From Candidatus Promineifilaceae bacterium (GTDB lineage: Bacteria > Chloroflexota > Anaerolineae > Promineifilales > Promineifilaceae): a stretch of 59,264 nucleotides of DNA. The notes beneath the pieces were generated by a model. It ran no database searches. It saw only the letters and a list, made by a program, of their open reading frames with translations, and was not told the DNA's origin. This document shows positions 23,369-45,389 of the stretch, one piece after another. The stretch lies in contig JBNKZT010000001.1 of the NCBI GenBank assembly GCA_050301775.1, positions 1 to 59,264 on the forward strand. The letters are read 5' to 3'. How positions within the stretch are numbered: the stretch's first letter is position 1; each line of letters starts with the position of its first letter. A program made the position numbers and the translations under genes.

Positions 23369-23394
23369 ATTGGATGGGGCTTGGGAATTGTGTG

Positions 23395-25385: not shown

Positions 25386-26081
25386 CTACTCCTCCGGTGG
25401 CGCGGAAATGAAGACCCAATAATGCTTGTATGTACTGTTCGCAACATAGGCATAACCGATACCGTAGTTGGTCTGATCCGCCCAAAACGTGTCTTCCGCC
25501 AGCACGTGGGTGCGATGTCCGGCCGAGTTCAACCAACCCGCCCAGGTTGCGGACGCAGTCGTGTAACCGGCGGCAATGGATTCGATGTTGTTGGCATCGT
25601 TCGCCGTACCGTACCAGGTTGGTAAAGCATAACCTGCTTGCCGGACCAGGTAATTGGGTCCGTACCCATCGGGGTTGGTATGGCTGAAATAATTGCGTGT
25701 TCCCATGTCCAATGCCCGCTCACGCGCCACCTGGGCCAGCGTAGGATCACAGATCATGAACGGCCGTCCCTGATCGGGATGATTGATGGCAAAACTGGCA
25801 ATTTCCTGTTCCTGTGGATTAAGTTCACATTCGAACGGTCGTACAACAAGCGGCAAATAAACAAATTTATCAAGTGCGGCAGCGGTGTCGCTTGGCGGGT
25901 TCTCCGACGCTGTGGATGGGAAAATCGGCTCAGGAAGTTGTGTTGGGCTTTCTCCAATGACAGGGGTTGTTGGCAAATTATCTTGTGCGCTCGCGAGTCT
26001 GGCGATAATGAAGATGGCTGAAACGAGCAGCAAACCCAAGACGATGGTTAGTATTTGATAGGCTTTGGGTTTCACTTTCAT
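25386..26081 (-). CDS. Secreted CAP/SCP (PR-1-like, YkwD-type) domain protein
   Basis: Track ORF of 231 aa. N-terminal TM/signal, a Pro-rich linker, and CAP motifs YFSHTNPDG, AGWLNSAGHRTHVL and YWVFI. It contains VYLPLVV between the linker and the CAP domain. Confidence 0.85.
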   Translation of the reverse strand: MKVKPKAYQILTIVLGLLLVSAIFIIARLASAQDNLPTTPVIGESPTQLPEPIFPSTASENPPSDTAAALDKFVYLPLVVRPFECELNPQEQEIASFAINHPDQGRPFMICDPTLAQVARERALDMGTRNYFSHTNPDGYGPNYLVRQAGYALPTWYGTANDANNIESIAAGYTTASATWAGWLNSAGHRTHVLAEDTFWADQTNYGIGYAYVANSTYKHYWVFISAPPEE

Positions 26082-26331: not shown

Positions 26332-27159
26332 TTAGTTGTGCCTGATTTGAATGTTTAGCGCAGACGTTAGAGAGTTCATAAGGGTAACGGCCGTTCCCTC
26401 TTTCTCTAAAGTGATGCTGATAAGCTTCCCATTCATGTCCTCAAATTTAGTCTGCTCGGAAAACCCGGCCGCTTGCAAAACCTGAATGTAATCCAGATCG
26501 GCACTTTCCTTCTCGAACTGGCAGTTGATGACGTATTGGCCTTCATTGGGGCTAAGGACGGCCGTTAATTCACACGATTCGGGCGGTGGCACCAGGGGGG
26601 CGGGCCATTGGAGGGGAACGGCCGTTGGCGGACTATTGGGGACTGGGACAGCATCCTGAATGACGGCCTTGAACCCATTGGTGTAAATATCGTAAACGGC
26701 CGTGTCGCCACCCGCTTCCAGGCGCATGTGATAATCGCCTTTCGTGATGTCAACCGCGTCAAACTCACCCCGCTTTAGCTTTTCTTCCGAACTGTCAGAA
26801 AAACCTTCTTGCGAATAAACGAGATATTCAAGCGCGAACCCGGCCTTTTCCAGTTGGTCCAGGTATTGTTCAATTTGACGATCAGTCACCGACTCGTAAA
26901 AAATTCTAACCTTGTCGGAACCGCCCATGACCAAATTGATGCTGCCATCCAAAACAGGAATAGCATCCGGGATATATTCCGGCCATTGGGCACTGTCGCC
27001 AAACACCGCCGGCGCAGCCCCATTATCAGCGCCGGTTGATTGACTGCCGGTCAGACCTTCAGCAGTTGAGTCATTGACGACCTCATTGTCGTTCCCGCAG
27101 CTAATGAGCGTTAAAAGCGAAAATAGGACGATAAAGAACGTTGCGAATTTAGCTCCCAT
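26332..27159 (-). CDS. Hypothetical lipoprotein
   Basis: Track ORF of 275 aa. Signal plus lipobox FSLLTLISCGN. Two loosely similar alpha/beta segments (IEQYLDQLEKAGFALEY and LDYIQVLQAAGFSEQ). No family is recognised. Confidence 0.7.
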   Translation of the reverse strand: MGAKFATFFIVLFSLLTLISCGNDNEVVNDSTAEGLTGSQSTGADNGAAPAVFGDSAQWPEYIPDAIPVLDGSINLVMGGSDKVRIFYESVTDRQIEQYLDQLEKAGFALEYLVYSQEGFSDSSEEKLKRGEFDAVDITKGDYHMRLEAGGDTAVYDIYTNGFKAVIQDAVPVPNSPPTAVPLQWPAPLVPPPESCELTAVLSPNEGQYVINCQFEKESADLDYIQVLQAAGFSEQTKFEDMNGKLISITLEKEGTAVTLMNSLTSALNIQIRHN

Positions 27160-29073: not shown

Positions 29074-29115
29074 ATCGCGGCGACTTCCCCATTTCTCGTT
29101 TCATCTGACAATATG

Positions 29116-29148
29116 GAGCGTACCGGTTCAAAACCGGTACGCTCTTTT
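29116..29148 (+). terminator. Intrinsic terminator of the helicase gene
   Basis: A perfect 13-bp stem GAGCGTACCGGTT caaa AACCGGTACGCTC followed by TTTT. Confidence 0.8.
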
Positions 29149-29223
29149 GCCTTGCCGGTAAACCTTTGTGTATAATGTGGCCACACGACAACAGAACATA
29201 AAGTCGTGTAACGGGTAATTTTT

Positions 29224-30195
29224 ATGAATAGATCTTATTTTTTTGTGATTGGTTTGTTGGTGGTTGGTTTGTTGGGTACGGCCTGTGCTGAACAGGATGG
29301 ACCGGAAATTGTGCCGACAACGGCCGTTTCTGCCCCCACCATTCCCCCGACCGCAGCCATTATTCCCACGCCGACTGCCATCCCACCGACGCCAACGCCC
29401 ACCGAACCAATGGCGGCGCTGGTCAACAACCAACCCATTTTCCTGGCCGAGTATGAACAGGAGTTGGCCCGATACGAGCAAGCCCTGTTAGAAATGGGCA
29501 GCACGCCCGACGCGGATGGTGTCAATTACCGGGCACAGGTATTGGATGTATTGATTGAAAAAGAGCTGATTGTCCAGGCCGCGACCCAACGGGGTATCAC
29601 GATAGGAGCCGAAACAGTTAACGCCAAATTGGCTGAACTGGAAAGCGCTGCCGGTGAAACAGGCAATTTCGATGCCTGGTTGTCAGCCAACCAGTGGACA
29701 CGGGAACAGTTCCAAATCGCATTGGCCGAAGAAATGTTGACAGAAGCTGTTGTGGCTGATGTGACTGCCGCCGTGCCGACCACAGCCGAACAGGTCTGGG
29801 CGCGCTACCTGCAAGTTGATGACCTGGCGCTGGCCGAGAGTCTTTTACAACAAATCCAGGCGGGCGCTGACTTTGGCACATTGGCCAACCAATATTCATT
29901 AGATCGTATCACGGCCGAAAACGGTGGCGACCTGGATTATTTTGCGCGGGGTTCATTGTTGATAACGGCCGTAGAAGAAGCAGCCTTTGCTCTCCAACCC
30001 GGAGAAATAAGTGCCGTCATTACCGATACCGGTCTGGATGGTGTCCCCACCTATTATTTGGTACAAACACTGGAGCGGGATCCGGAACGGCCGTTAAAAG
30101 CCAATATGCGGTATACTATGTTACAACAAGCCTTTGAAACGTGGCTGGACGGGTTGTGGCAGTCAGCTGACATTACCCGGTTGATTGAATCGTAA
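29224..30195 (+). CDS. Secreted parvulin-type peptidyl-prolyl isomerase (SurA/PrsA-like)
   Basis: Track ORF of 323 aa. Signal/lipobox-like LLGTAC, a Pro/Thr linker, a SurA-N-like helical part, and a PpiC region ADFGTLANQYSLDRITAENGGDLDYFARGSLLITAVEEAAFALQPGEISAVI. Confidence 0.85.
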   Translation: MNRSYFFVIGLLVVGLLGTACAEQDGPEIVPTTAVSAPTIPPTAAIIPTPTAIPPTPTPTEPMAALVNNQPIFLAEYEQELARYEQALLEMGSTPDADGVNYRAQVLDVLIEKELIVQAATQRGITIGAETVNAKLAELESAAGETGNFDAWLSANQWTREQFQIALAEEMLTEAVVADVTAAVPTTAEQVWARYLQVDDLALAESLLQQIQAGADFGTLANQYSLDRITAENGGDLDYFARGSLLITAVEEAAFALQPGEISAVITDTGLDGVPTYYLVQTLERDPERPLKANMRYTMLQQAFETWLDGLWQSADITRLIES

Positions 30196-30201
30196 GAGAA
30201 A

Positions 30202-31026
30202 GTGAGGGGAAACGTGGACAGAAAAAAACGCCGTGGCTGCGGCTCGATTATCCAAAATGTCGTTGCTATTCTGTTTCTTTTAGTCGCTTTGCTGGTGGTG
30301 GCCGGATTCGTGGCTGTCTTTTTCATGCCCGATTTGCTGGAACTGACTCCCTTGGCCGGGCTGGTACGGACAGAAGATACAACCAACCCAGCAGATGCAC
30401 CGACAGCGGCCGTTGCCGCCGTTGTGCCCTCCCTGACGCCAACCAATACGCCCAATTCGCTGCTGCCCACCTGGACGCCTAAATCTGAGGTTCCAACTCC
30501 GGAACCACTGCCCACCAATACGCGGAAACCGACTTTAGAGCCGTCCATCACGCCGACGCTTCCAACCAAAACACCCACACCGACCGCAACAAACACCCCA
30601 ACCAGCACCCCCACAGAAACCCCGATTGGCCCAACGCCTACAGCAAGTCCGACAAAATCGGCCTTCCCCTTTACAAAATCTGATACCAGCCCATTTTATT
30701 TGCGGAATTTCGCCAACAATGCCGGGTGTGATTGGATGGGAATTGCCGGGGAAGTATTAGATTTAAACCGTAATCCGGTGGCAGGTGGCAGTTATCAGGT
30801 GCATGTGTGGGGCAGTGGAATTGATGCCCGCTTGTCCGTGGGGTCGGCCCCCGCCTACAGCCCGTCCGGTTGGGAGCAGTTCCTGTTTGATTCGCCGGTT
30901 GTTCGCGATTATTCGGTGCAGTTAGAGTCGAGCAGCGGCACGGCCGTTTCCGAGGCTTATCGCGTCCAATCCCGCGCCAGCTGTAACCAAAACCTGGTAC
31001 GTTTCGATTTTATCCAAAATCACTAA
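30202..31026 (+). CDS. Membrane-anchored protein with a long Pro/Thr-rich linker and an uncharacterised C-terminal domain
   Basis: Track ORF of 274 aa (GTG start; GTG 30214 is also possible). TM AILFLLVALLVVAGFVAVFF, a PT-rich stretch of about 100 aa, and a C-terminal domain of about 110 aa with 2 Cys (NAGCDWMGIAGEVLD...SRASCNQNLVRFDF). Confidence 0.7.
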   Translation: MRGNVDRKKRRGCGSIIQNVVAILFLLVALLVVAGFVAVFFMPDLLELTPLAGLVRTEDTTNPADAPTAAVAAVVPSLTPTNTPNSLLPTWTPKSEVPTPEPLPTNTRKPTLEPSITPTLPTKTPTPTATNTPTSTPTETPIGPTPTASPTKSAFPFTKSDTSPFYLRNFANNAGCDWMGIAGEVLDLNRNPVAGGSYQVHVWGSGIDARLSVGSAPAYSPSGWEQFLFDSPVVRDYSVQLESSSGTAVSEAYRVQSRASCNQNLVRFDFIQNH

Positions 31027-31028
31027 CA

Positions 31029-31420
31029 GATTGGTCAGAGGATACGACCCCATTTTCCACATTCACCACTACTGTCACTCCCCTCACAGCCAGCCACCCG
31101 TTCACCTACACCTGGCAGGCGACTGGGCAGCTAACAGTTGTCCAAACCGGAGGCATCACTGATATTGTCGTTTATTCCTGGCCAAACACTAGTACTGCTT
31201 TCCATAAGTCCGCATAAGGTTTGTAGTGCCCATTTTAGTGGGTCGCCCGGCTAAAGTCGTTACTACAAACCTGATAAGGATTTACGAAAACGTGTACTAG
31301 AACAAAAACCATCACGGTGACGGTGGAAAATGAGGTGGACGGGCGGTGACGACGCCCCATACCGTTGATGTGGAGCCACTTCGGGTTTGTTTGCCGGTAG
31401 TATTGGAGGAGGAGTGGGGG
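31029..31420 (+). pseudogene. Relic of the 3' end of a P2-like paralog (PKD-like domain + CLPVV tail), disrupted by a ~104-bp insertion and a 1-nt deletion
   Basis: Own translation: DWSEDTTPFSTFTTTVTPLTASHPFTYTWQATGQLTVVQTGGITDIVVYSWPNTS.. then ..TKTITVTVENEVDG(frameshift)VTTPHTVDVEPLRVCLPVVLEEE. It aligns at DNA level to 36960-37228 of the intact gene. GGGCGGTGACG here versus GGGCCGGTGACG there gives the frameshift. Confidence 0.75.
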
Positions 31421-31516
31421 GGGGAACGGCCGTTGCACCCCCAATAAAAACTAAAGAGCAATCGTAAGCGAGGCAATTTACACTTTCACTACAGCAATAA
31501 ATAGAAGGAGAATGCA

Positions 31517-33844
31517 ATGAAGACACGGGGAGCCTCATGGGCCATTACAATTGGGTTTAGCCTGACCTTTTTAACTCTATTCATTTTGACCACCGTCGGC
31601 CAGTTAACGGCCGCGCCAACCGAAATGCCGGCCGCCGTCGCCGGTGGACTATACGCCAACCGGCGCAGTGATGGCGTCATCAAAACGTCCACCCAGGGCA
31701 TTCACGGGCCTAAAACGTGTACCGATTTCGGCGATCCTTATTCGCCCCTCAACAGCGTCTGGGCGCCCGGCCTTTACACCTACACCTACCGCATCCGCAT
31801 TCCCGATAACTATCCATCGGACATTATCCGGGTGGAACTGTTTGATCCCGACACGATCAACAATGCTGTGGCCAGTACAATCATTACGCATACGGATACG
31901 GCCGTTGCCAACGGCCTGCCCATTACCCAAACGTTAAGCTGCCTTCCCAACGACCAGAAGGATGCCTGTCTGGTGGATACTGGCGAAAATCTCCTGGTTG
32001 GAGTAGATCAGGAGCAAATCAATCCTTTTTGGATAGTCCGCGTTGATGAAAATCGGGGTTACGGCCCCGATGACGGGAATGGCGTGTGTGGCCAACCCAC
32101 TTATTATACGCCGGTCTACAACACCCAAACCGCCTACAAACTGTATTACCAGGCCGATGCCGGTGGTGGCATAACCCAGACCGTCAACCTAGCCACCTAT
32201 ACCGGCCAAGTTGACGATGGTGTGCGCGACTCTGGCGAGCACCAGACTGATTTGCGCTGGGTCTCACCGGGTGCAGCCGCCAATTATGACCAATTGGCCG
32301 CTGCCCCCACCGACTGCGGCAGTCCCAATGGCGGCGATTATGACCCCGTTGCTTGCCCCGGCGGCACGGCCGCCGGTTCCGGCAGTGGGTTTGAAGTCAG
32401 TATCTCCCAGGATTTGGCCAACATCGCCGCCGATCCGGTTACGGGCGAGCGTTATTTGTATCTGGCCGTCGCTACAATTAATGGTGCGTCAGAAAATGTA
32501 TTCGAATTATGGGCCGGACCGCCCGATTATGTGGCTACTATCGCCGGCGAAGTTAATCAACGCAATCTACAAATCTACAACAATCCCGGCAGCCATAACT
32601 CAGATGGGATAATCATCTTTACGGATAAATATCTACCGCAAAATACGATGACGGATACTCTGGTTGACAGCCCCTTGATGTATGTAGGCCCGGAATATGC
32701 CGGTGCGGAAATTTATATTACCCACTTTGATTTCGACGCCGGTACACAACCACCCATCACCTTTTCGCTGGCCTCGCTGGCCCTGACTGATTGGTCGATG
32801 ACCTTTGGCCTGCCAGGCGTGGATGACCCCGATGGCGTGGCCGCCGGCGTGCGCTGCCTGCCCGGCCTCTGTAACAACCAGTGGGTAACTCCAGCCTATA
32901 CCCTCACCCTGCCGGGCGATTTGAGTCAGTGTGATTGGCTCAATCCCAATCCGGCCGACTGCACGCCCTTTTACGGCGGGCGGTTGATGGCCCGCTATTA
33001 TGGAGGCAGCTACGGCAACACCTTTGGCTGGCAGGTAACGTTGTCGGAACCGGTTGCCGCACCTTTGCAGGGATGTGCCGCTTTCCCCATCGCCGTCCAG
33101 GATGAGATTCGTTCGGTAACGGCCGTAACCGGCCCCAATCCCTATCCCAACCTGACCGACTTTATCTATCCGGCCGACCCGCCAGCCTATGACAGATTTA
33201 TGTCCCATTCAGCGGACATTCCTTTAGCGGCGGCCGAGCCGGGTCATGTATTCAAATTGGTTGGCGAGGGATTTAGCGTAGGTAATTATGGCTGGCTGGT
33301 ATGGAACGCGGGACGGCCGTTCACCGCCGATACGTTAGCCGCCAGCCTGACCTGGCCGGGCGACAGCCTGGACTATGCCGATCATAGTGACGCGGGTACG
33401 GCCGTTGGCAGTTTTTCGCATGTTGTTCGCGGTTATGTTAACCCCATCAACCCCGCTGACGTGACGCTCAACACCCAGAATCCGGTATTGGCCAGCCCGG
33501 CGACGATTCATGATGGACCGGTGCAAACGGCCGTTAACACGCTCATTGACTCCAACCGGCTGTTACGGCTGCCTTTATGGAATACGGGGGATGGGGGGAA
33601 CGGCCGTTACACCATCAGCAGCTTTGCCATCTTCCGCATCGTCGGCTACGGCACGACTGCTGGGGAGGGGGACTGGCTGCTGCTGGAGTTTGTCGGCCAG
33701 GATACGTCGTGCGGTCAACAGTTACCCACCAGCGTCAGGCTGCATGAGGTCGCGGCCGGCGGCTCGCCAGGGTTTATGCCGGCAGTGACGGCGGCATTCC
33801 TGCTACTGACTGGTTTGGGTTTAGTGATGTGGCGGAGAAGGTAG
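31517..33844 (+). CDS. P1: large secreted Cys-rich protein of unknown function (shared module A + module B), PGF-motif/TM/RRR C-terminal anchor
   Basis: Track ORF of 775 aa. GAAGGAG lies 6 nt upstream of the ATG. N-terminal TM/signal. Motifs shared with P2/P3: GP..C..FGDP(Y/F)SP.NS.WA, Y(T/H)YRI.IP..YPSD..RVE.FDPD.IN, INPFW.VR.DENRG, GNG.CG.P, H.TD..W.SPG, G.SEN.F.LWAGP, RC.PG.C...W, CTPFYGG. Module B motifs: GC.AFPIA, GN(Y/F)GWL.WN, SLTWPGDSLDY, LRLP.W, GFA.FR. Tail: SPGFMPAVTAAFLLLTGLGLVMWRRR. Confidence 0.85.
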   Translation: MKTRGASWAITIGFSLTFLTLFILTTVGQLTAAPTEMPAAVAGGLYANRRSDGVIKTSTQGIHGPKTCTDFGDPYSPLNSVWAPGLYTYTYRIRIPDNYPSDIIRVELFDPDTINNAVASTIITHTDTAVANGLPITQTLSCLPNDQKDACLVDTGENLLVGVDQEQINPFWIVRVDENRGYGPDDGNGVCGQPTYYTPVYNTQTAYKLYYQADAGGGITQTVNLATYTGQVDDGVRDSGEHQTDLRWVSPGAAANYDQLAAAPTDCGSPNGGDYDPVACPGGTAAGSGSGFEVSISQDLANIAADPVTGERYLYLAVATINGASENVFELWAGPPDYVATIAGEVNQRNLQIYNNPGSHNSDGIIIFTDKYLPQNTMTDTLVDSPLMYVGPEYAGAEIYITHFDFDAGTQPPITFSLASLALTDWSMTFGLPGVDDPDGVAAGVRCLPGLCNNQWVTPAYTLTLPGDLSQCDWLNPNPADCTPFYGGRLMARYYGGSYGNTFGWQVTLSEPVAAPLQGCAAFPIAVQDEIRSVTAVTGPNPYPNLTDFIYPADPPAYDRFMSHSADIPLAAAEPGHVFKLVGEGFSVGNYGWLVWNAGRPFTADTLAASLTWPGDSLDYADHSDAGTAVGSFSHVVRGYVNPINPADVTLNTQNPVLASPATIHDGPVQTAVNTLIDSNRLLRLPLWNTGDGGNGRYTISSFAIFRIVGYGTTAGEGDWLLLEFVGQDTSCGQQLPTSVRLHEVAAGGSPGFMPAVTAAFLLLTGLGLVMWRRR

Positions 33845-33904
33845 AGAGGGAAGGCAACTGTTACCCCGCCACCCAAATTTCTATTTACAATTGTGGAGGA
33901 AGCC

Positions 33905-36900
33905 ATGAAAAAACGTGCCGTGTTGGCCATTTTGCTTGTCAATATTGTTTCAGTTTTGATTATTTTGCAGGTTAACCAGGCGGCGGCGACGGTAACGGCC
34001 GTGCAGCCCGCCGATGTTTATATCGGACGTAGAACGTCAACCGGCATCATTAATACGTCAAACTTGTCCATTTTTGGCCCCAATATTTGTATCTATTACG
34101 GCGACCCATTCTCGCCCTGGAACAGCCCCTGGGCGCCTAACTCTTACACCTACCATTACCGCATCCTCATTCCGTCCGATTATCCTTCCGATGTCCTGCG
34201 CGTGGAACTGTTCGACCCCGATTCTATAAACCAGGCGACCAATACCCATGCTATTAGCTATTCAGCCAATGCCCACGCTCTCGATCCAGTGAGTTTCCCA
34301 CTGGGGACCGTCAATAAAAATTGCAGTAGCTCAGATCGTAGGAACGCTTGCTTGATAAGCACCGGCGAAATGAGTCTAGTCGATCCTACGGGTGCCCCAC
34401 CGGTATTGTTGGACCAGATAAATCCATTTTGGTTTGTGCGTATAGATGAAAATCGTGGTGCTGGAGCTGCTCCTGGTAATGGGCTTTGTGGCATGCCCGG
34501 TTATTATAATCCTGCTTTTAACACATCAACCCTTTACGAACTGTTTTACTACACTCAAAACTCCGATGGCTCAACGACCAGGACTCCCCTGGCAAACTAC
34601 ACTGGTCAAACAGGTGATAATATTCGTGATGATGGAAGCCATTTGACCGACATGCATTGGGTTTCGCCCGGCGGCACTCAAATCTACGACCAACCGGCTG
34701 CCGTACCGGTTGATCCTGGTTCGTCCAGCGATTTTGAATTGAGCATTGCTCAAGACCTTCCCGGCATTGTCACCGACCCAGCGACTGGCGATCGGTATGT
34801 TTACCTGGACATCACCACCTTGAGCGGTGCTTCGGAGAATGGCTTCGATATTTGGGCCGGGCCGCTTTATCCAGATGTTTCCAGTGATGTAAATATTCGT
34901 AATATTCGGGTTCTCAACAGCCCTTCCAGCCACAACGCCAAAGGCGTGGTCGTATCCGCTTTAGAGTACAATCTCGTCAACTCTAATTACAGCAACGTGA
35001 TTGACATTCCCTTGACTTACGTTAATGCAGATCAGGCTGGGCAGCCCGTTTATGTATCCTTGTTCGATACCGATTCTGGTGCAGAGCCTCCTATCATTTT
35101 TTACCTGGATACGGTGCCTGAATCGGATTGGTCACTTACTTTTGGCGCTGGCGATCCTGATCCGGATGGGGTTAGCGGCCGTTGCAAGCCCGGTTTCTGT
35201 GACGGCAAATGGGTCGATCCGCTTTACCAAATTCAAATGCCGGACTTGACGAGCGCCTGCGACCTGGCCAATCCTGATTCACAGATTTGCACCCCATTTT
35301 ACGGCGGCCGCCTCATGGCTCATTATATCGGTGGGGTTGGCGACACGTACGCCTGGCAGGTCAACGCCGAAGAAGGTCAGCCTGATCCAACGGCCGGCTG
35401 CTCCGCTTTTCCCATTGCCATCAGCAAATTTGTTCGCTCCGTATCACCACCCGGTTCAGGGGCTAACCCTTATCCTGATGCCAATGATTTTGATTATCCC
35501 GACGGTAAAGACGCACCCGAACCACCGGAGTATATTGATTTTCCAAACCATATACCTGATGTGCCCTTGCTCCAGGCCAAGGAAGGCTCTGTTTTTCTGG
35601 TTAGAGCAGGGACTCAGCCGGGCAATTTTGGCTGGCTGCTGTGGAACAATATCTACCAGACAGGCAGTGCTGCTACTTTAAGTCGAAGTTTAACCTGGCC
35701 TGGTGACAGTCTTGACTATCCTTTTAATGGTTATTACGAACCAGGCGATCCGACGGACATGTCGCTGGGTATTGATGACTGGGTGGCTAGCAATGATGGT
35801 AATGTCAACTCAATGGATGTTCTCCAGGCATTGAATGAACACATTGATCTGGGACGCGTTCTCCGGCTGCCTATTTGGGATTATTCTACTCAAGTTACCG
35901 GAGATACTATGTACCAGATGAGCGGATTCGCCTTGTTCCGTTTGCAGGGCTACAACATCAGTCAAAACTGGCTGCTGCTGGAGTTTATTGGCTGGGATGA
36001 CTCTTGTGGCCAGGAAACAGTCTATTCAGAGAGCGTCACGATTGACGGTCCGGTAACAGGGCTGGTGAATACATCCCATACATTTACGGCGACGGTCAGC
36101 CCTATTACAACGACGCTGCCGTTATCGTACACTTGGGAAGCAACCGATCATGCACCTGTTACGCACAGCAGCGGTTTGACCGATGTCATTTCCTACACCT
36201 GGTCGATTACGGGCACTAAAACTATTACGGTTTCTACCCGATATGGCGTTGTTGATACACATACGATCACGATTGACCCGGCGCTGGCCGATTTGACGAT
36301 TGGGGATTTGACGCTGCTCTCCCCGTTGCCTATTGCCGCCAATGAGCCGGTGGACTTTCAGGTAACCATTAGCAACACCGGTGACGTGGCCACCAATCAG
36401 ACATTTTTCGTTGATGTGTTCCTGGACCCCACGGAAGTGTATTCGACCAGTATCCCCCTCAACCAGAGTTCTGGTTACGTGGCGGTTGGTTCGTTGGGCG
36501 CACATGCCAGCCGGGTGATCACGATGACGACAGCCGGCTTTGCTACCGAACCAGACCCGCATCAGGTGTATGCGATGGTGGACTCGGTGCGGCAGGTGAG
36601 CGAAGGGAATGAAGCGAATAACATTGTCGGGCCTTTAGTTGTCAATGACGTGGGCGTACCACTACACTCAATTACACTGCTGCCTAACTGTGGCACTGGT
36701 CCTGACGTGCAGTTTACGGTGATGGGTTTTAACTGGCCGCAAAATACGGATGTTCACTTATACTGGGACTATATGCTTCAAAGCATAATCCAGACAGGGG
36801 GCCTCACCTCTTTTTCACAGACCTGGCAAAAATTTGGGCTATCGGATGGGAGTTATACCTTAACTGCGGTCGCAAATGGTCATACGGCAACGGCCGTATT

Positions 36901-37228
36901 CACCGTCCCTTGCCCATCAGCCCCCATGGCTGTTACCGTCAATGGTCCAACAACAAACCTGGTCAACGCTACAGGCACGTTCACTGCCACCGTCACCCCC
37001 CTCACCGTCACCCAGCCGTTCACTTACACCTGGCAGGCCACCGGCCAGCCCGACATTGTCCAGACCGGCGGCTTTACGGATACGGTTGCCTACACCTGGG
37101 CCATCACCGGGACGAAAACCATCACGGTTACGGTGGAAAATGGGGTGGACGGGCCGGTGACGACCACCCATACCGTTGAAGTGGAGCCTTTCCGGTGTTA
37201 TTTGCCGGTGGTGTTAAAAGAGGAGTGA
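33905..37228 (+). CDS. P2: paralog of P1 (modules A + B) extended by PKD-like, CARDB-like and Ig-like domains; CYLPVV tail
   Basis: Track ORF 33893..37228. The likely start is ATG 33905 (MKKRAVLAIL), with GGAGGA 5 nt upstream. It has the same conserved Cys/motif set as P1. There are two PKD-like repeats (..FTATVSPITTTLPLSYTWEATD.. and ..FTATVTPLTVTQPFTYTWQATG..), a CARDB-like segment ADLTIGDLTLLSPLPIAANEPVDFQVTISNTGDVAT, and the protein ends VEPFRCYLPVVLKEE. Confidence 0.88.
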   Translation: MKKRAVLAILLVNIVSVLIILQVNQAAATVTAVQPADVYIGRRTSTGIINTSNLSIFGPNICIYYGDPFSPWNSPWAPNSYTYHYRILIPSDYPSDVLRVELFDPDSINQATNTHAISYSANAHALDPVSFPLGTVNKNCSSSDRRNACLISTGEMSLVDPTGAPPVLLDQINPFWFVRIDENRGAGAAPGNGLCGMPGYYNPAFNTSTLYELFYYTQNSDGSTTRTPLANYTGQTGDNIRDDGSHLTDMHWVSPGGTQIYDQPAAVPVDPGSSSDFELSIAQDLPGIVTDPATGDRYVYLDITTLSGASENGFDIWAGPLYPDVSSDVNIRNIRVLNSPSSHNAKGVVVSALEYNLVNSNYSNVIDIPLTYVNADQAGQPVYVSLFDTDSGAEPPIIFYLDTVPESDWSLTFGAGDPDPDGVSGRCKPGFCDGKWVDPLYQIQMPDLTSACDLANPDSQICTPFYGGRLMAHYIGGVGDTYAWQVNAEEGQPDPTAGCSAFPIAISKFVRSVSPPGSGANPYPDANDFDYPDGKDAPEPPEYIDFPNHIPDVPLLQAKEGSVFLVRAGTQPGNFGWLLWNNIYQTGSAATLSRSLTWPGDSLDYPFNGYYEPGDPTDMSLGIDDWVASNDGNVNSMDVLQALNEHIDLGRVLRLPIWDYSTQVTGDTMYQMSGFALFRLQGYNISQNWLLLEFIGWDDSCGQETVYSESVTIDGPVTGLVNTSHTFTATVSPITTTLPLSYTWEATDHAPVTHSSGLTDVISYTWSITGTKTITVSTRYGVVDTHTITIDPALADLTIGDLTLLSPLPIAANEPVDFQVTISNTGDVATNQTFFVDVFLDPTEVYSTSIPLNQSSGYVAVGSLGAHASRVITMTTAGFATEPDPHQVYAMVDSVRQVSEGNEANNIVGPLVVNDVGVPLHSITLLPNCGTGPDVQFTVMGFNWPQNTDVHLYWDYMLQSIIQTGGLTSFSQTWQKFGLSDGSYTLTAVANGHTATAVFTVPCPSAPMAVTVNGPTTNLVNATGTFTATVTPLTVTQPFTYTWQATGQPDIVQTGGFTDTVAYTWAITGTKTITVTVENGVDGPVTTTHTVEVEPFRCYLPVVLKEE

Positions 37229-37307
37229 GGAGGTAAACGGCCGTTGTTCCCATCACATAACCAGTAACAGTCGCCAGGGAACGGTCGTTCATTTTTTGGA
37301 GAAAGCC

Positions 37308-39110
37308 ATGAATAAACAAAATATCTCTTTAGCCGCCGCTATTGTCGTCAGCCTGCTCATGCTGGTCTTCCTCACCCACAATATTGCCTCATACAGTTCA
37401 GAAATTCAGAGTGGGGATACGGCCGTTGCCGTTCCCCCACCGCCAGTTAAAAGAACGATCACTTCTTTTTACTCTTTGATTTATGGTCCCAACATCTGCA
37501 CCAGTTTTGGTGATCCGTTTTCTCCCTGGAACAGTGTTTGGGCGCTAGGGTCTTACACTTACCATTATCGGATCATCATCCCCGATGATTACCCTGACGA
37601 TGTTTTGCGCGTGGAGATTTTTGACCCCGATTCCATCAATCGTGCTGAAAATACGGCCGAGATGTTTCATACGGAAACGGCCGTAAACGCCGGCTTCCCA
37701 CTTTTCGAAACCCGCTCCTGCACAGACGACCAGAGATTTAGCTGTCTTCTCGATACAGGAGAATTGGCTCTAACAACCGGGGATCCGCCGCTGGATTTTA
37801 CCAGCATCAACCCCTTTTGGTTGGTACGCGTCGACGAAAATCGGGGCGGAGGTACCCCGCCGGGTAATGGCACATGCGGTATTCCTGCCGCCTACGACGC
37901 GGCTTTTAACACCTCAACACTTTTTGAACTTTTCTACTATGCCCAAAACAGCGACGGCACAATCACGAAAATACCTCTATCAAGATATACCGGACAGGCT
38001 GGGGATAGTCTTCGCGACAATGGTAATCATCAAACCGATTTGCATTGGATTTCCCCAGGTGGAACGAGATTGTACGATCAACCGGCTGATGTGCCGGTAG
38101 ACCCGGGTTCCCCAGGCGATTTTGAACTCAGTGTTGCCAACGATTTGCCCGGCATCATCATTGATCCCTACACAAACAAACGAACCATTTACCTGGACAT
38201 TACCTCTTTACAAGGCGCTTCCGGCAATGGCTTTGATCTCTGGGCCGGACCGCTGTATCCCGATATTTCCAGCGATGCCAATGTTCGAAATGTTCAACTT
38301 ATCGACGATCCTCAGGCCCATGACACACAGGGTGTTTTCGTTGAACCGTTAGGACAATGGCCAATCCACTCAGCCTACGAATACCCTTACGAAATGCCGC
38401 TGATATACGTTGATGCGCAGAATGCCGGTAAATCAGCTTATGTTTCTTTGTTTGACACCGATGAGGGCACACAACCGCCCATTACCTTCTATTTTGATAC
38501 CATTCCCGAAGAAGATTGGTCTATGTCGTTTGGTGACGGCGATCCCGATCCAGATGGGGTTTCAGGGCGCTGTAAACCAGGGAGTTGCGACAATCGCTGG
38601 GTAAATCCCGCTTATGAAGTCCAAATTCCTGGGATCCTGGATAATTGTGACTGGGAAAATCCCACGCAAGAAGATTGTACACCATTTTATGGGGGATACC
38701 TGATGGTTCGTTACAATGGCGGGCCGGGAGATACCCATGTTTGGCAGGTTCCTATTGTCAGGCCACAAGTAACAATCGAGCCAGAACACAGCCAAATAGA
38801 TACGACACCGGGTATCACGGTAACTCACGTATTTACCACCACCTGGTTAGAATTTGAAAGGATGAACGACCTGGCGGTTACGGACTCGACCTGGCCTGCT
38901 CAATTGGATTGGTATGCTACTCGCGATCCCTTGGGTGTGACATGGGGAACAATCACGGTCACTGTGTTGCCACCAGATATATTGTGGGTTTCTGACACCT
39001 TTACACTCACGCTCAGTAACGAACCATTGGCCACAGGCACCACCCGGACAACTTTGAATGGTTTGTTTTTGCCGCACCGGGCCTATTTGCCGATGGTTTC
39101 GCAGCCGTAG
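37308..39110 (+). CDS. P3: paralog carrying module A only, then a distinct C-terminal domain; AYLPMV tail
   Basis: Track ORF 37296..39110. The likely start is ATG 37308 (MNKQNISLAAA), with GGAGA upstream. It shares all 8 module-A cysteines with P1/P2 (GPNICTSFGDPFSPWNSVWA ... DCTPFYGGYLMVRYNGG) and ends LFLPHRAYLPMVSQP. Confidence 0.85.
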   Translation: MNKQNISLAAAIVVSLLMLVFLTHNIASYSSEIQSGDTAVAVPPPPVKRTITSFYSLIYGPNICTSFGDPFSPWNSVWALGSYTYHYRIIIPDDYPDDVLRVEIFDPDSINRAENTAEMFHTETAVNAGFPLFETRSCTDDQRFSCLLDTGELALTTGDPPLDFTSINPFWLVRVDENRGGGTPPGNGTCGIPAAYDAAFNTSTLFELFYYAQNSDGTITKIPLSRYTGQAGDSLRDNGNHQTDLHWISPGGTRLYDQPADVPVDPGSPGDFELSVANDLPGIIIDPYTNKRTIYLDITSLQGASGNGFDLWAGPLYPDISSDANVRNVQLIDDPQAHDTQGVFVEPLGQWPIHSAYEYPYEMPLIYVDAQNAGKSAYVSLFDTDEGTQPPITFYFDTIPEEDWSMSFGDGDPDPDGVSGRCKPGSCDNRWVNPAYEVQIPGILDNCDWENPTQEDCTPFYGGYLMVRYNGGPGDTHVWQVPIVRPQVTIEPEHSQIDTTPGITVTHVFTTTWLEFERMNDLAVTDSTWPAQLDWYATRDPLGVTWGTITVTVLPPDILWVSDTFTLTLSNEPLATGTTRTTLNGLFLPHRAYLPMVSQP

Positions 39111-39131
39111 ATTGGGTGGTGAACGGCCGTA

Positions 39132-41006
39132 TCACGCCAAATGCGCCTTCACTGCCTCCGCCACCTCAAGCGGAATGCCCGGTACCGAACCAATCTCTTC
39201 GGCCGTTGCTTTACGCAAATCATCCAGCGAGCCAAAATGGGCCAGCAAAATCTGCCGCCGCTTTTTGCCGACGCCGGGCACGCTGTCCAAAACCGAAGCC
39301 ACGCCCACTTTGGCGCGCCGTTTGCGGTGCCCCTCATTGGCAAAACGATGTGCTTCATCCCGCACCCGCTGCACCAGATACAGCGCTTCCGAGCGGCGCG
39401 AGAGCAAAATCGACTTTGACTGCCCTGGTACAAACAACTCTTCTTCCTGTTTGGCCAGTCCTGTCAACGGCACCTCATCTTGCAGATCGAACTGGGCCAA
39501 AACATCCACGGCCATCGACAACTGCCCTTTACCCCCGTCCACAATCAGCAAATCGGGCAGCAATGACCAGGCAGTGTCTTTCTTGATCTGGCCAATCTGA
39601 CTGGGATCGTGCAGTTCACCGGCCAGTGTGTCCTTGTAGCGCTGGAAACGGCGCGTCAGCACTTCCTTCATCGCGCCGTAATCGTCATTGCCCACCGTCT
39701 GCACATTAAAGCGGCGGTAGTCGCTTTTGCGCGGCGCCCCCTGGACAAACACCACCATCGAGCCGACCGTTTGCGCCCCCTGCGTGTGGCTGATGTCATA
39801 GCATTCAATGCGCGCCGGCGGCGTCGGCAAATTCAGCGCCTCTTGCAGTTCCGTCATGGCCGTGACGTGTTTGGAGCGGTCGGCGGCCCACTGTTGGCGC
39901 AGCGTGGCCAACGTGTCGGCGGCGTTGTTGGCGGCCATTTGCACCAGTTCTTTCTTTTTGCCCCGCTGCGGAATTTGTAGCGTAACTTTGGTGCCCCGCT
40001 TCTGCTTCAGCCACTGCTCGATAATCATCGCTTCGGCCACCTCGTTGGGCAGCAGGACTTCTTTGGGAATGTGGGCGGCTTCATCATAAAACTGGGTCAG
40101 GAAATCTTGCAGCACATCGCCATCACTTTCGTCTTCTGTGCCGTCCAGTAAGAAATATTCCCGGCCAATCAGCTTGCCATGCCGGATGAAAAAGATTTGC
40201 ACGCAGGCGTCTCCCTGTTCACGAGCAAAGGCCACAACGTCTTGATCGGTGCTGGCCGCGCCGATGACTTTTTGTTTGGCCACCACTTTATCCACAGCCC
40301 GCAGTTGGTCACGGATTTCGGCCGCTTTTTCAAACTGCAAGTTTTCGGCCGCCTTGTTCATCCGCGCTTCCAATTGTTTGGCGATATGTTCTGATTTGCC
40401 GTTGAGAAAATCCATTAACTGTTGGATCATGCCGCGATACTGCTGTTTGTTAACTGCGCCAATACAGGGACCATTACACAGCTTAATGTCGTAGTACAAA
40501 CAGGCGCGGGCATCGTTTCCGGTGATATTCCGGTCACAAGTCAGGTAGGGGAAGATTTTGCGCAGCAGGTCTAATGTTTGGTGAACAGCCCAAACGGAGG
40601 CATATGGGCCAAAGTAGCGGGAGCCATCGCGGACCATCCGCCGGGTGACGGTGACTTTGGGGTAATTATCGGCCCAATGTATTTTGATGTAGGGCATCCG
40701 CTTGTCGTCTTTGAGTTGGATGTTGTAGCGGGGGCGGTGCTTTTTGATGAGATTCATCTCTAGCAGCAGTGCTTCCAGTTCGGAATCGGTGGTGATGATC
40801 TCTATATCGGTAATCTGGCGGCGTAACTGCTCCGTTTTGGTGCGGTCGACTTTGGCGGCAAAGTAGGAGCGGACACGGTGGCGTAGATTGACCGATTTGC
40901 CGACGTAAATGATGGTTCCGCTTTTATCTTTGTGCAGATAAACGCCGGGCTTCTGGGGCAGGTTTTTAAGGATTTTCTGGATGTTTTCGGGTGGTGTGTA
41001 AGCCAT
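39132..41006 (-). CDS. uvrC: Excinuclease ABC subunit C
   Basis: Track ORF of 624 aa. GIY-YIG N-terminus (PGVYLHKDKSGTIIYVGKSVNLRHRVRSYF), a UvrBC-interaction region, an endonuclease-V-like domain and a C-terminal (HhH)2 (IPGVGKKRRQILLAHFGSLDDLRKATAEEI). Confidence 0.95.
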   Translation of the reverse strand: MAYTPPENIQKILKNLPQKPGVYLHKDKSGTIIYVGKSVNLRHRVRSYFAAKVDRTKTEQLRRQITDIEIITTDSELEALLLEMNLIKKHRPRYNIQLKDDKRMPYIKIHWADNYPKVTVTRRMVRDGSRYFGPYASVWAVHQTLDLLRKIFPYLTCDRNITGNDARACLYYDIKLCNGPCIGAVNKQQYRGMIQQLMDFLNGKSEHIAKQLEARMNKAAENLQFEKAAEIRDQLRAVDKVVAKQKVIGAASTDQDVVAFAREQGDACVQIFFIRHGKLIGREYFLLDGTEDESDGDVLQDFLTQFYDEAAHIPKEVLLPNEVAEAMIIEQWLKQKRGTKVTLQIPQRGKKKELVQMAANNAADTLATLRQQWAADRSKHVTAMTELQEALNLPTPPARIECYDISHTQGAQTVGSMVVFVQGAPRKSDYRRFNVQTVGNDDYGAMKEVLTRRFQRYKDTLAGELHDPSQIGQIKKDTAWSLLPDLLIVDGGKGQLSMAVDVLAQFDLQDEVPLTGLAKQEEELFVPGQSKSILLSRRSEALYLVQRVRDEAHRFANEGHRKRRAKVGVASVLDSVPGVGKKRRQILLAHFGSLDDLRKATAEEIGSVPGIPLEVAEAVKAHLA

Positions 41007-41009
41007 TGG

Positions 41010-41429
41010 TTATTGGTCGGTTTGGTCAGGCCATAATTGGAAACCGGCCTGGACAAAATGCTGGTCGAAGGAAAAGGCTTGCCAAAGATGAAGTTGGCGC
41101 ATTAAGATAAAGCTCGTGCAATCGGTAAATGCCCATTCTTTGTCATCATAGGCCTGAAACATTTCCCAGGCAGCCTGCCAGGTACTCTCATCAACATGAA
41201 TGATTTCCACATTTTTAGCAGCAAGTAGCCATAAGCCAAATCGAGTCGCCGCGCCATGCCCGCTCCGTTTGAGTAGAATGGTTAATGCTTCGTCGAAAAC
41301 ATAATCGCTGGTTTGGATAGTAACGGATTGTCCTTCCAATTGGCGGAAGCTGGCTGAAGCCGCTCGATGGTATTTGTCACTTTTATCGAAGAGGGCAACC
41401 CAGCCGCTGCTATCTGCAAACAGGTTCAT
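41010..41429 (-). CDS. vapC: PIN-domain toxin (VapC-type)
   Basis: Track ORF 41010..41456. The likely start is ATG 41429 (MNLFADSSGWVALFDKSDKYH), giving an ATGA overlap with the antitoxin stop. It has PIN-like acidic residues (D at the N-terminus, DEALT, FTDCTSF). Confidence 0.8.
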   Translation of the reverse strand: MNLFADSSGWVALFDKSDKYHRAASASFRQLEGQSVTIQTSDYVFDEALTILLKRSGHGAATRFGLWLLAAKNVEIIHVDESTWQAAWEMFQAYDDKEWAFTDCTSFILMRQLHLWQAFSFDQHFVQAGFQLWPDQTDQ

Positions 41430-41716
41430 TTGTCTTCTTCTGTCTCCGGATCCCAATCGCGGGTATAAATGTATTTGTCGTGATTGACTGAGCCGTCGGT
41501 AATGCCACTTTCAACCATGCCGATGATGTTCCAGATGGGGTCGTCGGCCGTTAAGATGTGACCTTCTTCTTTGGCAGGGGATTCGGTGACGTATTGGGCC
41601 AGCGCTTCCCGGATTTGGATGGCCATGGTGATGCCTTCGGCGTCGGCGCGATCTTTTAGCTGTTCGTAAATATCGCGGGGCAGGTAGACCTGTGTGCGAA
41701 CCATTTTCTCAGACAT
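41426..41716 (-). CDS. Ribbon-helix-helix antitoxin (VapB/CopG-like) with an extended C-terminal tail
   Basis: Track ORF 41426..41797. The likely start is ATG 41716 (MSEKMVRTQVYLPRDIYEQLKDRADAEGITMAIQIREALAQYV). RHH fold pattern, with a 4-nt overlap with vapC. Confidence 0.75.
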   Translation of the reverse strand: MSEKMVRTQVYLPRDIYEQLKDRADAEGITMAIQIREALAQYVTESPAKEEGHILTADDPIWNIIGMVESGITDGSVNHDKYIYTRDWDPETEEDK

Positions 41717-41802
41717 GATATTTCTCCGCTCGATAGATGTATGTAATATACATCTGTTGCGCCGGGGTGTCAACGGCCGTAACCACCCTCTCCCCACTAA
41801 AC

Positions 41803-41838
41803 AAAAAAAGAGGAACGGTTTACGGCCGTTCCTCTTTT
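41803..41838 (-). terminator. Intrinsic terminator downstream of the DUF11-protein gene (A-run/T-run on both sides)
   Basis: AAAAAAAG AGGAACGG tttacgg CCGTTCCTCT TTT. On the minus strand the hairpin is followed by a run of 7 T. The loop/stem contains an ACGGCCGT copy. Confidence 0.75.
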
Positions 41839-41864
41839 GACATCCTTGTTTGAATTAAACTGAT

Positions 41865-42536
41865 TTAACGAATAACCACCGGCAGGTAAACTTCGTATTG
41901 AGTTGGCTGAACAATGAGGGTGACTTCGGCCTGGTTGTTACCGGTGAATGCATCGATGTCGGATGAGATAACGGCCGTACTTACCAAACTTGTCTTCGCA
42001 TTGATTGAAGGATCAACGACACCCGTCACAATAACCGTTCCCGTCACACCGGGTGCTAAATCCTCCACATGCATGACATAGCCTGTCCCGTCCACTAATG
42101 TCACTCCTGGTCCTTTGCTTTCAAAAGTCGTCTGAATGAGGTTCGACGGTTTTTTATAGTCAATCACCACACCGGTGGCTGTAGCGTTGCCATCATTGCG
42201 GAAGGTCACAATGTAAGTCACAACCTGCCCTGGTTCGACCACTGTCGGCGTCACTACATGAGTAATCGACAGGTCAGGCGCGGCGTCGGTGGCCACCGGC
42301 TCATGCCAAAAACCACCGCTGAGGCTGAATTCGCCGCCGGACATCGTGCCGGCGTCGGGCTGACCAGCCGTACCGACAACTTCCAGGCCGCCGCCGCTGC
42401 TGCGCCCGCCGCCGCCGTCAAACGTAAACCAGGGCAAGCTGAAGGTTGGCTCCTGGGTAAATCCATGCCGGTTAATCAGGGCCAGGGCCGCGATTAAAGC
42501 CAGCAGCGGAACCAGGATTTTGCTTTTTCTGTTCAT
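41865..42536 (-). CDS. Secreted DUF11 (conserved repeat domain) protein with VYLPVV tail
   Basis: Track ORF of 223 aa. Signal peptide LVPLLALIAALALI. DUF11-like PDLSITHVVTPTVVEPGQVVTYIVTFRNDGNATATGVVI. It ends PTQYEVYLPVVIR. Confidence 0.8.
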   Translation of the reverse strand: MNRKSKILVPLLALIAALALINRHGFTQEPTFSLPWFTFDGGGGRSSGGGLEVVGTAGQPDAGTMSGGEFSLSGGFWHEPVATDAAPDLSITHVVTPTVVEPGQVVTYIVTFRNDGNATATGVVIDYKKPSNLIQTTFESKGPGVTLVDGTGYVMHVEDLAPGVTGTVIVTGVVDPSINAKTSLVSTAVISSDIDAFTGNNQAEVTLIVQPTQYEVYLPVVIR

Positions 42537-42578
42537 GATGAGTCCTTTCGACTGCTTTTGGCAACTTCCGAAAATGCC

Positions 42579-45122: not shown

Positions 45123-45377
45123 TTGTTTTGCTCCTCGTGCGAAACCCAGCAACCATTACCGGCATAAACCAATTGAAAAAATCATGGGAATGTATTGAAA
45201 AAATTTGGGGTTGCGAACTACTTCCGCCAATAATGGTTATTTATTTGTTTGCACAAAATATTTTCTGTCATTAATAATGTACCACTGGATTGTTAAAATA
45301 TTTGTTACAATCGTAAGATTTCTACCTGGGAAAAAGGTACTGGGGAGCAGGGTACTAGGCGGCTGGCACGTTGCCGC

Positions 45378-45383
45378 TATAAT
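45378..45383 (+). promoter_or_regulatory. -10 box TATAAT, 6 nt upstream of ATG 45390 (leaderless candidate)
   Basis: GCTATAATcaagacATG. The preceding 230 nt are AT-rich and shared with the divergent collagen-like gene. Confidence 0.35.
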
Positions 45384-45389
45384 CAAGAC

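Follow-up and report, generated by a model that had tools for sequence, protein, structure and literature searches.

Background

According to a recent proposal, TadE, TadF and TadG, the minor pilins of Tad (type IVc) pili, assemble into tip complexes with variable domains on display (Herrou et al. 2025, PMC12075869), and surface recognition by these pili is still poorly understood. In filamentous Chloroflexales, Tad pili, with tadEEG among their genes, are the only type of pili encoded (PMC7332563); our literature search found nothing on Tad pili of Ardenticatenales or Promineifilum. In this work, a 59-kb stretch of DNA from Candidatus Promineifilaceae bacterium (hereafter the window) was analyzed, with emphasis on a + strand locus at positions 29224-39110 that encodes three large paralogous proteins, P1, P2 and P3, composed of two kinds of modules, A and B.

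Three types of described systems can be compared with P1-P3, together with one type of foldase encoded beside them. The first is the TadE/TadF/TadG minor pilins. Modules A and B have homologs in the C-terminal heads of PF13400 and PF07811 proteins, whose genes lie side by side in related genomes, and both settings share the idea of variable head domains exposed for binding. P1-P3 differ from these pilins in lacking the pilin helix, the prepilin motif and any Tad or TadE Pfam domain, and in having a predicted Sec-type signal and a C-terminal anchor or sorting motif; moreover, P1 and P2 unite in a single chain heads that the operon encodes as separate subunits. Many TadG proteins carry vWA heads, whereas modules A and B are not vWA domains and have no solved structural relative (Foldseek against PDB). 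The second type is represented by the Streptococcus sanguinis proteins PilB (vWA) and PilC (lectin), which are summarized in PMC12075869 as modular minor pilins with grafted adhesive domains. The operon proteins described below are built on the same principle, with a pilin module at the N-terminus joined to a large C-terminal binding module; modules A and B differ in that they also occur free of a pilin and fused to each other, and have no known adhesin fold. The third type includes the YLP-box proteins, recognized by the NCBIfam models NF050076 (sort_motif_YLP) and NF053834 (ultrashort_CTERM). The tails of P3, of other family members and of a neighbouring DUF11 protein reach the cut-offs of these models, whereas P1 ends in a transmembrane (TM) helix followed by RRR; no paper describing the mechanism of the motif was found. 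Finally, a gene at 29224-30195 encodes a protein that combines an export signal with SurA_N_3 and Rotamase domains, as in the PrsA/SurA-type parvulin foldases, but it is not conserved beside the P1-P3 family and shows no sign of dedication to P1-P3.

The known carriers of these genes (Ardenticatenaceae, Promineifilaceae and Ca. Leptofilum) are uncultured filamentous Anaerolineae, represented here by metagenome-assembled genomes only. Activated sludge is rich in Ca. Promineifilum and its relatives, and attachment and bundling influence floc structure there. A preliminary description of the locus proposed an undescribed, diversifying cell-surface system of six elements with its own foldase. The comparative analysis reported here points elsewhere: as judged by homology, the locus is not an undescribed system but a set of Tad minor-pilin heads apparently detached from their helices, joined to each other in P1 and P2, and put to new use as surface proteins. 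Their modules are part of the Tad minor-pilin repertoire of a single Anaerolineae clade, and an NCBIfam model for the YLP tail exists already.

Results and discussion

Domain architecture of P1-P3

Open reading frames (ORFs) were found across 29224-39110 at the coordinates reported previously. P1 shares 48% identity with P2 and 42% with P3, and the arrangement of tandem paralogs that share module A, with module B added in P1 and P2, is real. Module A (~470 amino acids, aa) is common to all three proteins, and module B (~230 aa) follows it in P1 and P2. The features of the three genes are as follows.

31517..33844, + strand: P1, 775 aa; predicted signal peptide, then modules A and B, then a C-terminal TM helix and RRR
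31643..33046, + strand: P1 module A, aa 43-510; all-beta, 8 invariant Cys
33047..33751, + strand: P1 module B, aa 511-745; first and last Cys invariant
33770..33832, + strand: P1 C-terminal hydrophobic helix, aa 752-772, then RRR; predicted stop-transfer membrane anchor (Kyte-Doolittle scan)
33893..37228, + strand: P2, 1111 aa from GTG; predicted signal peptide, modules A and B, PKD, CARDB, Ig-like, PKD, YLP tail
34016-35377, + strand: P2 module A
35387-36016, + strand: P2 module B
36191..36913, + strand: P2 CARDB (aa 767-920) and Ig-like (aa 927-1007) region, from BLASTP against a ~700-aa TadE/CARDB pilin
37196..37225, + strand: P2 tail CYLPVVLKEE, YLP-box-like by eye
37296..39110, + strand: P3, 604 aa from TTG; predicted signal peptide, module A, ~100-aa C-terminal domain, YLP tail
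about 37458-38795, + strand: P3 module A
39081..39107, + strand: P3 tail AYLPMVSQP, YLP-box; scored as an isolated tail, 15.0 bits with NF050076 sort_motif_YLP (exactly at the cut-off of 15) and 13.6 with NF053834 (cut-off 10)

Alternative starts exist for P2 (ATG at 33905, giving 1107 aa, the start at which its ortholog begins) and for P3 (ATG at 37308, giving 600 aa). P1 contains 12 Cys and two hydrophobic segments, at residues 5-30 and 752-772.

Modules A and B as minor-pilin heads

The preliminary description assigned module A to no family, and searches of Pfam, NCBIfam and PDB, together with AlphaFold models compared by Foldseek, agree and place neither module in a curated family or with a solved structure. 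For module A, scans of P1-P3 gave no Pfam or NCBIfam match, and neither a single-sequence search nor a 103-sequence profile found anything among PDB sequences. Its AlphaFold2 model, built with the homolog alignment, is all-beta, with a predicted local distance difference test (pLDDT) score of 96.3 and a predicted template modelling score of 0.94; Foldseek yielded no significant match either in PDB (best E 0.056, probability <=0.33, template modelling score (TM-score) <=0.2) or in BFVD (best E 4.8e-3, TM-score 0.14). Module B has no match in Pfam, NCBIfam or PDB sequences, its model reaches a pLDDT of 90.2, and its best Foldseek match in PDB is likewise insignificant (E 0.07, TM-score <=0.2). 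The locus thus supplies two confidently modelled domains (pLDDT 96 and 90) without a solved structural relative.

The eight Cys of module A that had been called invariant are retained across 103 homologs (C26, C100, C109, C149, C405, C410, C430 and C440 in module numbering). The strict conservation ascribed to the sequence motifs was slightly overstated. Most of them match literally in every copy, including seven of the ten in module A; A3 matches in two of the three copies, A7 in one and A9 in none. For module B, five of the six motifs match literally in both copies, and B5 in one of two. Module A of P1 also contains an insertion, DCGSPNGGDYDPVACPGG (window 32300-32360, aa ~266-284), with two extra Cys; it is absent in P2 and P3 and present in some TadG-like pilins (P0095, P0096), a further hint of exchange between pilins and fused proteins.

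The origin of module A is suggested by the proteins that share it. A homolog search with P1 returned 299 database proteins, and all of those with a named source belong to Chloroflexota (Anaerolineae, Ardenticatenaceae, Promineifilaceae, Ca. Leptofilum). In the ~600-aa homologs, module A is preceded by the Pfam domain PF13400 (Tad, TadE/G-like), which is matched by homologs P0081-P0118 and by a gene of locus L001 (8.8e-09). A scan of GTDB species genomes gave 171 relatives, all from the same clade, and 80 loci (L001-L080) were compared by BLAST of their ORFs against reference pieces. In 43 TadG-like genes of the GTDB loci, the region after the Tad domain is 43-54% identical to module A. An exhaustive HMMER search collected 736 cluster representatives at E<=1e-3, 349 of them between E 1e-10 and 1e-3; among the best 150 of the 736, PF13400 was found in 25 of the 34 most distant representatives, the few named ones being Anaerolineae. 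With homologs in these numbers, the similarity lies far above chance. The distribution implies that module A is more widespread in the pilin context, which is probably also the older, and that the fused Sec-type proteins seem to be derived. By these matches, module A is homologous to the heads of TadG-like minor pilins (PF13400).

Searched as a single sequence, module B gave nine fragments only; its link to TadE surfaced through BLAST of related-locus ORFs and was then confirmed by a profile. Module B of P1 is 41% identical to aa 194-418 of the L001 protein TadE418 (E 2e-52, BLASTP), and the whole of the module can be aligned with the C-terminal domain of 41 PF07811 proteins (the ~420-aa TadE family) at 34-49% identity, with C16, C228, W92 and WPG invariant in the alignment. 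The profile search returns only 'pilus assembly proteins' of the ~420-aa TadE type and fragments of fused proteins. By this alignment, module B is a homolog of the head of a TadE-like (PF07811) minor pilin. The likeness of module B to Tad proteins, suggested in the preliminary description, was essentially right: B corresponds to the C-terminal domain of the TadE family, and it is module A that is TadG-like (PF13400).

P2 contains, in addition, the Ig/CARDB region of a third pilin. Among the extra domains reported for this protein, CARDB scores above the Pfam threshold (8e-09), whereas the PKD matches are weak. The CARDB and Ig-like regions match aa 440-595 and 367-453 of this pilin, the ~700-aa TadE702, with 47% (E 2e-29) and 42.5% (E 4e-16) identity, respectively.

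The minor-pilin operon of related Anaerolineae

About 40 loci from Anaerolineae (Ardenticatenaceae, Promineifilaceae, Ca. Leptofilum) carry a conserved minor-pilin operon, in which the relatives of modules A and B are parts of separate proteins.

Gene 1: ~700 aa, N-terminal TadE, Ig and CARDB
Gene 2: ~450 aa, secreted, YLP tail
Gene 3: ~215 aa, membrane protein
Gene 4: ~420 aa, N-terminal TadE; the C-terminal ~220 aa correspond to module B
Gene 5: ~620 aa, TadG-like (PF13400) Tad domain; the C-terminal three quarters correspond to module A
Gene 6: large Flp-like pilin, starting GQGIVEY, then InlB-type B-repeats

The TadE proteins of the operon match PF07811 at 3.9e-12 and 8.8e-10 and have the N-termini GQALVEF and GQSLVEV; these, as well as GQGIVEY, fit the G/xxxxE(Y/F) prepilin motif. 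Given the TadE/Tad Pfam matches and the N-termini with prepilin motifs, these operon proteins are real pilins.

Several details of the operon were noted in addition. Gene 2 (L001 6547-7911; present in ~37 loci) encodes a non-pilin protein with a Sec signal peptide, no confident Pfam domain and, in 33 of 37 cases, a YLP tail, so that the YLP-box occurs inside a pilus-tip operon. Gene 6 (L001 12118-14175; ~32 loci) combines the Flp motif G|QGIVEY with 450-900 aa of InlB-type B-repeats (Flg_new_2, 2.7e-71), and by these features its product is a predicted giant Flp-like pilin. All 43 TadG-like proteins (e.g. L001 10001-11860) end in G[LQA]PYL[VI][RK] directly after module A; this end resembles the YLP tail (LP, three hydrophobic residues, a basic residue) and is not matched by the YLP-box hidden Markov models (HMMs). 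Downstream of the operon, some loci encode a 603-aa protein (L001 14322-16133; also L011 and L028, 64-69% identity) with weak multihaem-cytochrome Pfam matches only, all below the cut-offs. Upstream of it, a divergent pair of nSTAND1 and BTAD/AAA_16 genes is found in three independent loci (L001 1-4221, L081 1-3979, L082 1-4131), and these could be regulators of the operon. A larger pair of this kind is present in the window, namely a Pkinase-nSTAND1-WD40 protein (780-6125, + strand, 1781 aa) followed by a BTAD-AAA-TPR protein (6156-9140, + strand, 994 aa); it lies ~20 kb from P1-P3 and adjoins no Tad gene.

N-terminal and C-terminal ends of P1-P3

PF13400 and PF07811 are not matched by P1, P2 or P3 at E<=1 in the Pfam scan. 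Their N-termini have no prepilin motif and consist of K/R residues, a hydrophobic stretch and an AxA-like end, which is the ordinary signal-peptide type as predicted from sequence and a Kyte-Doolittle scan. The pilin N-terminal helix with its prepilin motif thus appears to be replaced by an ordinary signal peptide in each of the three proteins. With a predicted signal peptide and eight invariant Cys, P1-P3 look extracytoplasmic, as had been supposed.

The C-terminal ends differ among the paralogs, also in line with the earlier account: P1 has a TM helix and RRR, and P2 and P3 have YLP tails. The P1 anchor is kept in the ortholog fragment P0121, which is 83% identical to P1. A PGF-CTERM or sortase signal was considered for this end and rejected; since the sole match was to the LAVTG model with an E-value of 0.23, the C-terminus of P1 is read as a plain TM anchor. 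The tail of the homolog P0052, RVYLPVVLREE, is near-identical to that of P2 and scores 11.7 bits with NF053834 (cut-off 10). In the family with fused modules A and B, 35 of 42 members end in a YLP tail. The ~100-aa C-terminal domain of P3 is 81% identical to that of its ortholog in L021 and was found nowhere else among the related loci compared.

A YLP tail is also present in the window outside the locus. A 223-aa DUF11 protein (41865-42536, - strand) ends in YEVYLPVVIR and scores 17.7 with NF050076 (cut-off 15) and 16.8 with NF053834 (cut-off 10). Its gene adjoins that of an 857-aa protein (42579-45152, - strand) with collagen triple-helix repeats and a BNR-like propeller, and the block is syntenic with L021.

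Genomic position, selection and exchange between copies

The fused genes have a conserved neighbour on their right side.

39132..41006, - strand: uvrC, convergent with P3; conserved synteny anchor of the fused genes

In 16 other genomes, a fused module-A gene is convergent with uvrC and present in one to three tandem copies (L002/L053, L009, L013, L018, L019, L021, L026, L036, L038, L040, L041, L056, L059, L061, L062, L063), which indicates that both the position and the tandem habit are conserved. Profiling of the phyletic distribution and neighbourhoods of module A, a check suggested in the preliminary description, returned an Anaerolineae clade, the linkage to uvrC and the pilin operon, and no partnership with a peptidyl-prolyl isomerase (PPIase). 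In the closest syntenic genome, that of L021 (94% aa identity in uvrC), nucleotide synteny covers window positions 33895-46060, from P2 onwards; this genome carries orthologs of P2 and P3 and is without P1 and the genes upstream of it in the locus.

The claim that the paralogs are diversifying was not upheld. The ratio of nonsynonymous to synonymous substitution rates (dN/dS) between the window and L021 is 0.135 for P2 (72.6% aa identity; 0.087 in module A) and 0.162 for P3 (85% aa identity), with 0.049 for uvrC. Values of 0.09-0.16 indicate purifying selection on P2 and P3 and, by implication, functional genes. Positive selection is ruled out by dN/dS for these orthologous pairs; pairs of paralogs are saturated at synonymous sites.

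Both the operon and the fused genes are present in at least 19 genomes, in which the two types can be compared directly. Pilin-borne and fused copies of module A are 63.7% identical within a genome and 52.0% across genomes, and those of module B 60.1% and 47.5%, with the top rank going to the same-genome copy in 9 of 18 genomes; in a neighbour-joining tree, the two types interleave. After a single ancient duplication without exchange, all pilin-fused pairs would be about equally distant. The higher similarity within genomes and the interleaving point instead to recurrent fusion of, or gene conversion between, pilin-borne and fused copies, and to a functional tie that may be continuing.

Proposed role of P1-P3

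The features described above are best accounted for if P1-P3 are Sec-exported, probably surface-retained proteins made from Tad (type IVc) minor-pilin head domains and acting as adhesins or ligand-recognition modules, a reading to which we assign a probability of about 0.6. P1 and P2 combine modules A and B in one chain, to which P2 adds the region from the third pilin, and P3 has only module A. Once exported by Sec, the proteins would form the four disulfides of module A outside the cytoplasm and would be retained at the envelope by the C-terminal TM helix (P1) or by the YLP-box as a putative sorting motif (P2, P3). Placed on the cell body, the A-B unit would reproduce the binding surface that TadG-like and TadE-like heads jointly present at the pilus tip, its display being independent of pilus assembly, and the PKD, CARDB and Ig domains may serve as a stalk. 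By Rosetta-stone logic, the A-B fusion predicts that heads A and B touch in the tip complex. The predicted contact fits both the TadEFG tip proposal (PMC12075869) and the Tad-only repertoire of Chloroflexales (PMC7332563).

If so, the locus offers a natural fusion that predicts which minor-pilin heads contact each other, a soluble, single-chain handle on tip binding, and a case of pilus-tip domains turned to use in surface proteins that are independent of the pilus and carry a YLP-box tail, a signal without a published mechanism.

A number of observations weigh against this reading. No Tad machinery or pilin genes (flp, tadV, rcpC, tadZABC, or a tadE/tadG operon) were detected by Pfam among the ORFs of at least 130 aa in the window. 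Neither module fold resembles a known adhesin, the jelly-roll or carbohydrate-binding module (CBM)-like partial matches being insignificant (best E 0.056, TM-score <=0.2). The tail of P2, CYLPVVLKEE, was not reported by the NCBIfam HMM scan, and the role of the YLP-box as a sorting motif is itself only putative. The tree in which the two types of copies interleave has no support values, and the same-genome similarity could come from repeated recent origin of the fusions and not from functional coupling.

Alternative explanations

No rival explanation has positive evidence comparable to that for redeployed pilus-tip heads. According to the one that survives best, P1-P3 are building blocks of an S-layer or sheath, attached through the YLP-box, and their similarity to pilin heads reflects domain sharing only. 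Such a role would suit large secreted proteins of several domains, among them PKD, CARDB and Ig, that end in a sorting motif and are encoded as tandem paralogs next to a DUF11 protein with the same tail. We nevertheless regard it as unlikely: the family is limited to one Anaerolineae clade with 1-3 copies per locus, no lattice-type repeat architecture is present, and both modules co-vary with pilin copies of the same genome, which is unexpected for a lattice protein.

The same co-variation would be expected if the fused A-B proteins and the pilus-tip heads of a genome formed a matched pair, the tip binding homotypically to the fused copy on a sister cell or filament. The raised same-genome similarity in both modules, the interleaving of the two types in the tree and the co-occurrence of both forms in at least 19 genomes are all compatible with this idea. 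If true, it would amount to pilus-based self-recognition (kin recognition) or filament bundling in filamentous Anaerolineae, in which gene conversion between operon and uvrC-linked copies would hold the specificity of the two together; this would explain the within-genome likeness. However, the idea is purely inferential, since gene conversion or recurrent fusion would give the same pattern in the absence of binding, and the genes are under purifying selection with no sign of allelic diversification; we give it a rather small chance.

An improbable variant is that P1-P3 are still pilus subunits, with divergent class III signals cut by a prepilin peptidase, and serve as interchangeable Tad tips. 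The start of P1, MKTRG|ASWAITIGF..., is loosely like the N-termini of TadG-like proteins (GQSIVLIAL, without Glu at +5), and several interchangeable tip complexes are known in Myxococcus (PMC12075869). Such a role is opposed by the absence of PF13400 and PF07811 matches at E<=1 in all three proteins, by the lack of a Gly before the hydrophobic core and the AxA-type cleavage regions of P2, P3 and most family members, and by the absence from P1-P3 of the pilin-like domain, ~100 aa long, located after the helix in TadG-like proteins; the C-terminal TM anchor of P1 is also hard to square with a pilus subunit.

Slightly less probable again is an enzymatic role, in which module A or B would be a novel hydrolase (a glycosidase or peptidase) and the other domains carbohydrate-binding accessories. 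Conserved acidic and His motifs (FDPD, DENRG, HxTD, FDxD) are present, and glycoside hydrolase domains and CBMs are among the weak partial Foldseek matches; these matches all fall short of significance (E>=0.056, probability <=0.33), searches of Pfam, NCBIfam and PDB sequences find nothing even with profiles, the acidic motifs would equally fit Ca-binding beta-sandwiches, and the ancestral context of the modules is that of a pilin.

Upstream genes and other features of the window

Upstream of P1, the locus contains the following features, the relic having been described as a decaying paralog.

29115..29145, + strand: intrinsic-terminator-like hairpin, 14-bp stem, 8 GC pairs, T tail (consensus scan)
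29224..30195, + strand: PrsA/SurA-like parvulin PPIase, SurA_N_3 1.9e-14, Rotamase_3 3.4e-14 (Pfam)
30202..31026, + strand: Pro/Thr-rich membrane-anchored protein, N-terminal TM segment at residues 11-50
31058..31435, + strand: relic, frameshifted remnant of the 3' end of a P2-like gene, with the last PKD domain and a '...VCLPVVLEEE' tail

The reported terminator was found again, at 29115-29145; this hairpin ends the upstream DEAD-box helicase gene and forms the left border of the co-directional gene run, with a promoter-like site (29147-29176) directly after it. The PPIase has an N-terminal hydrophobic signal at residues 3-24, possibly with a lipobox (LLGTAC), and the Pro/Thr-rich protein has no Pfam match above threshold. 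A relic is indeed present, although not of module A, a possibility that was ruled out: it derives from the 3' end of a P2-like gene, is 79-84% identical in nucleotide sequence to 36976-37246, and its PKD and tail pieces are broken by stops in a three-frame translation.

That the six co-directional elements (the PPIase, the Pro/Thr-rich protein, the relic and P1-P3) form one surface system in which the parvulin folds the Cys-rich paralogs, as the preliminary description had it, is very improbable, for in spite of the shared gene direction after a strong terminator and promoter-like site and the export signal of the PPIase, L021 is syntenic only from P2 onwards and lacks the relic, the Pro/Thr-rich gene and the PPIase, other genomes have different upstream genes, and homologs of the PPIase and of the Pro/Thr-rich protein are found in none of the 80 related loci compared (L001-L080), a non-conservation that largely refutes the six-element system and rules out the PPIase as a conserved partner.

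Some further genes of the window were noted. Between uvrC and the DUF11 gene, a PIN-domain protein (41010-41456, - strand) and a small overlapping upstream ORF (41426-41797, - strand) resemble a VapBC-type toxin-antitoxin pair, and L021 has no nucleotide match there. Upstream of the locus, a 606-aa ORF (23374-25194, + strand) and a 275-aa putative lipoprotein (26332-27159, - strand) have no Pfam match, and a CAP-family secreted protein is encoded at 25386-26081 (- strand).

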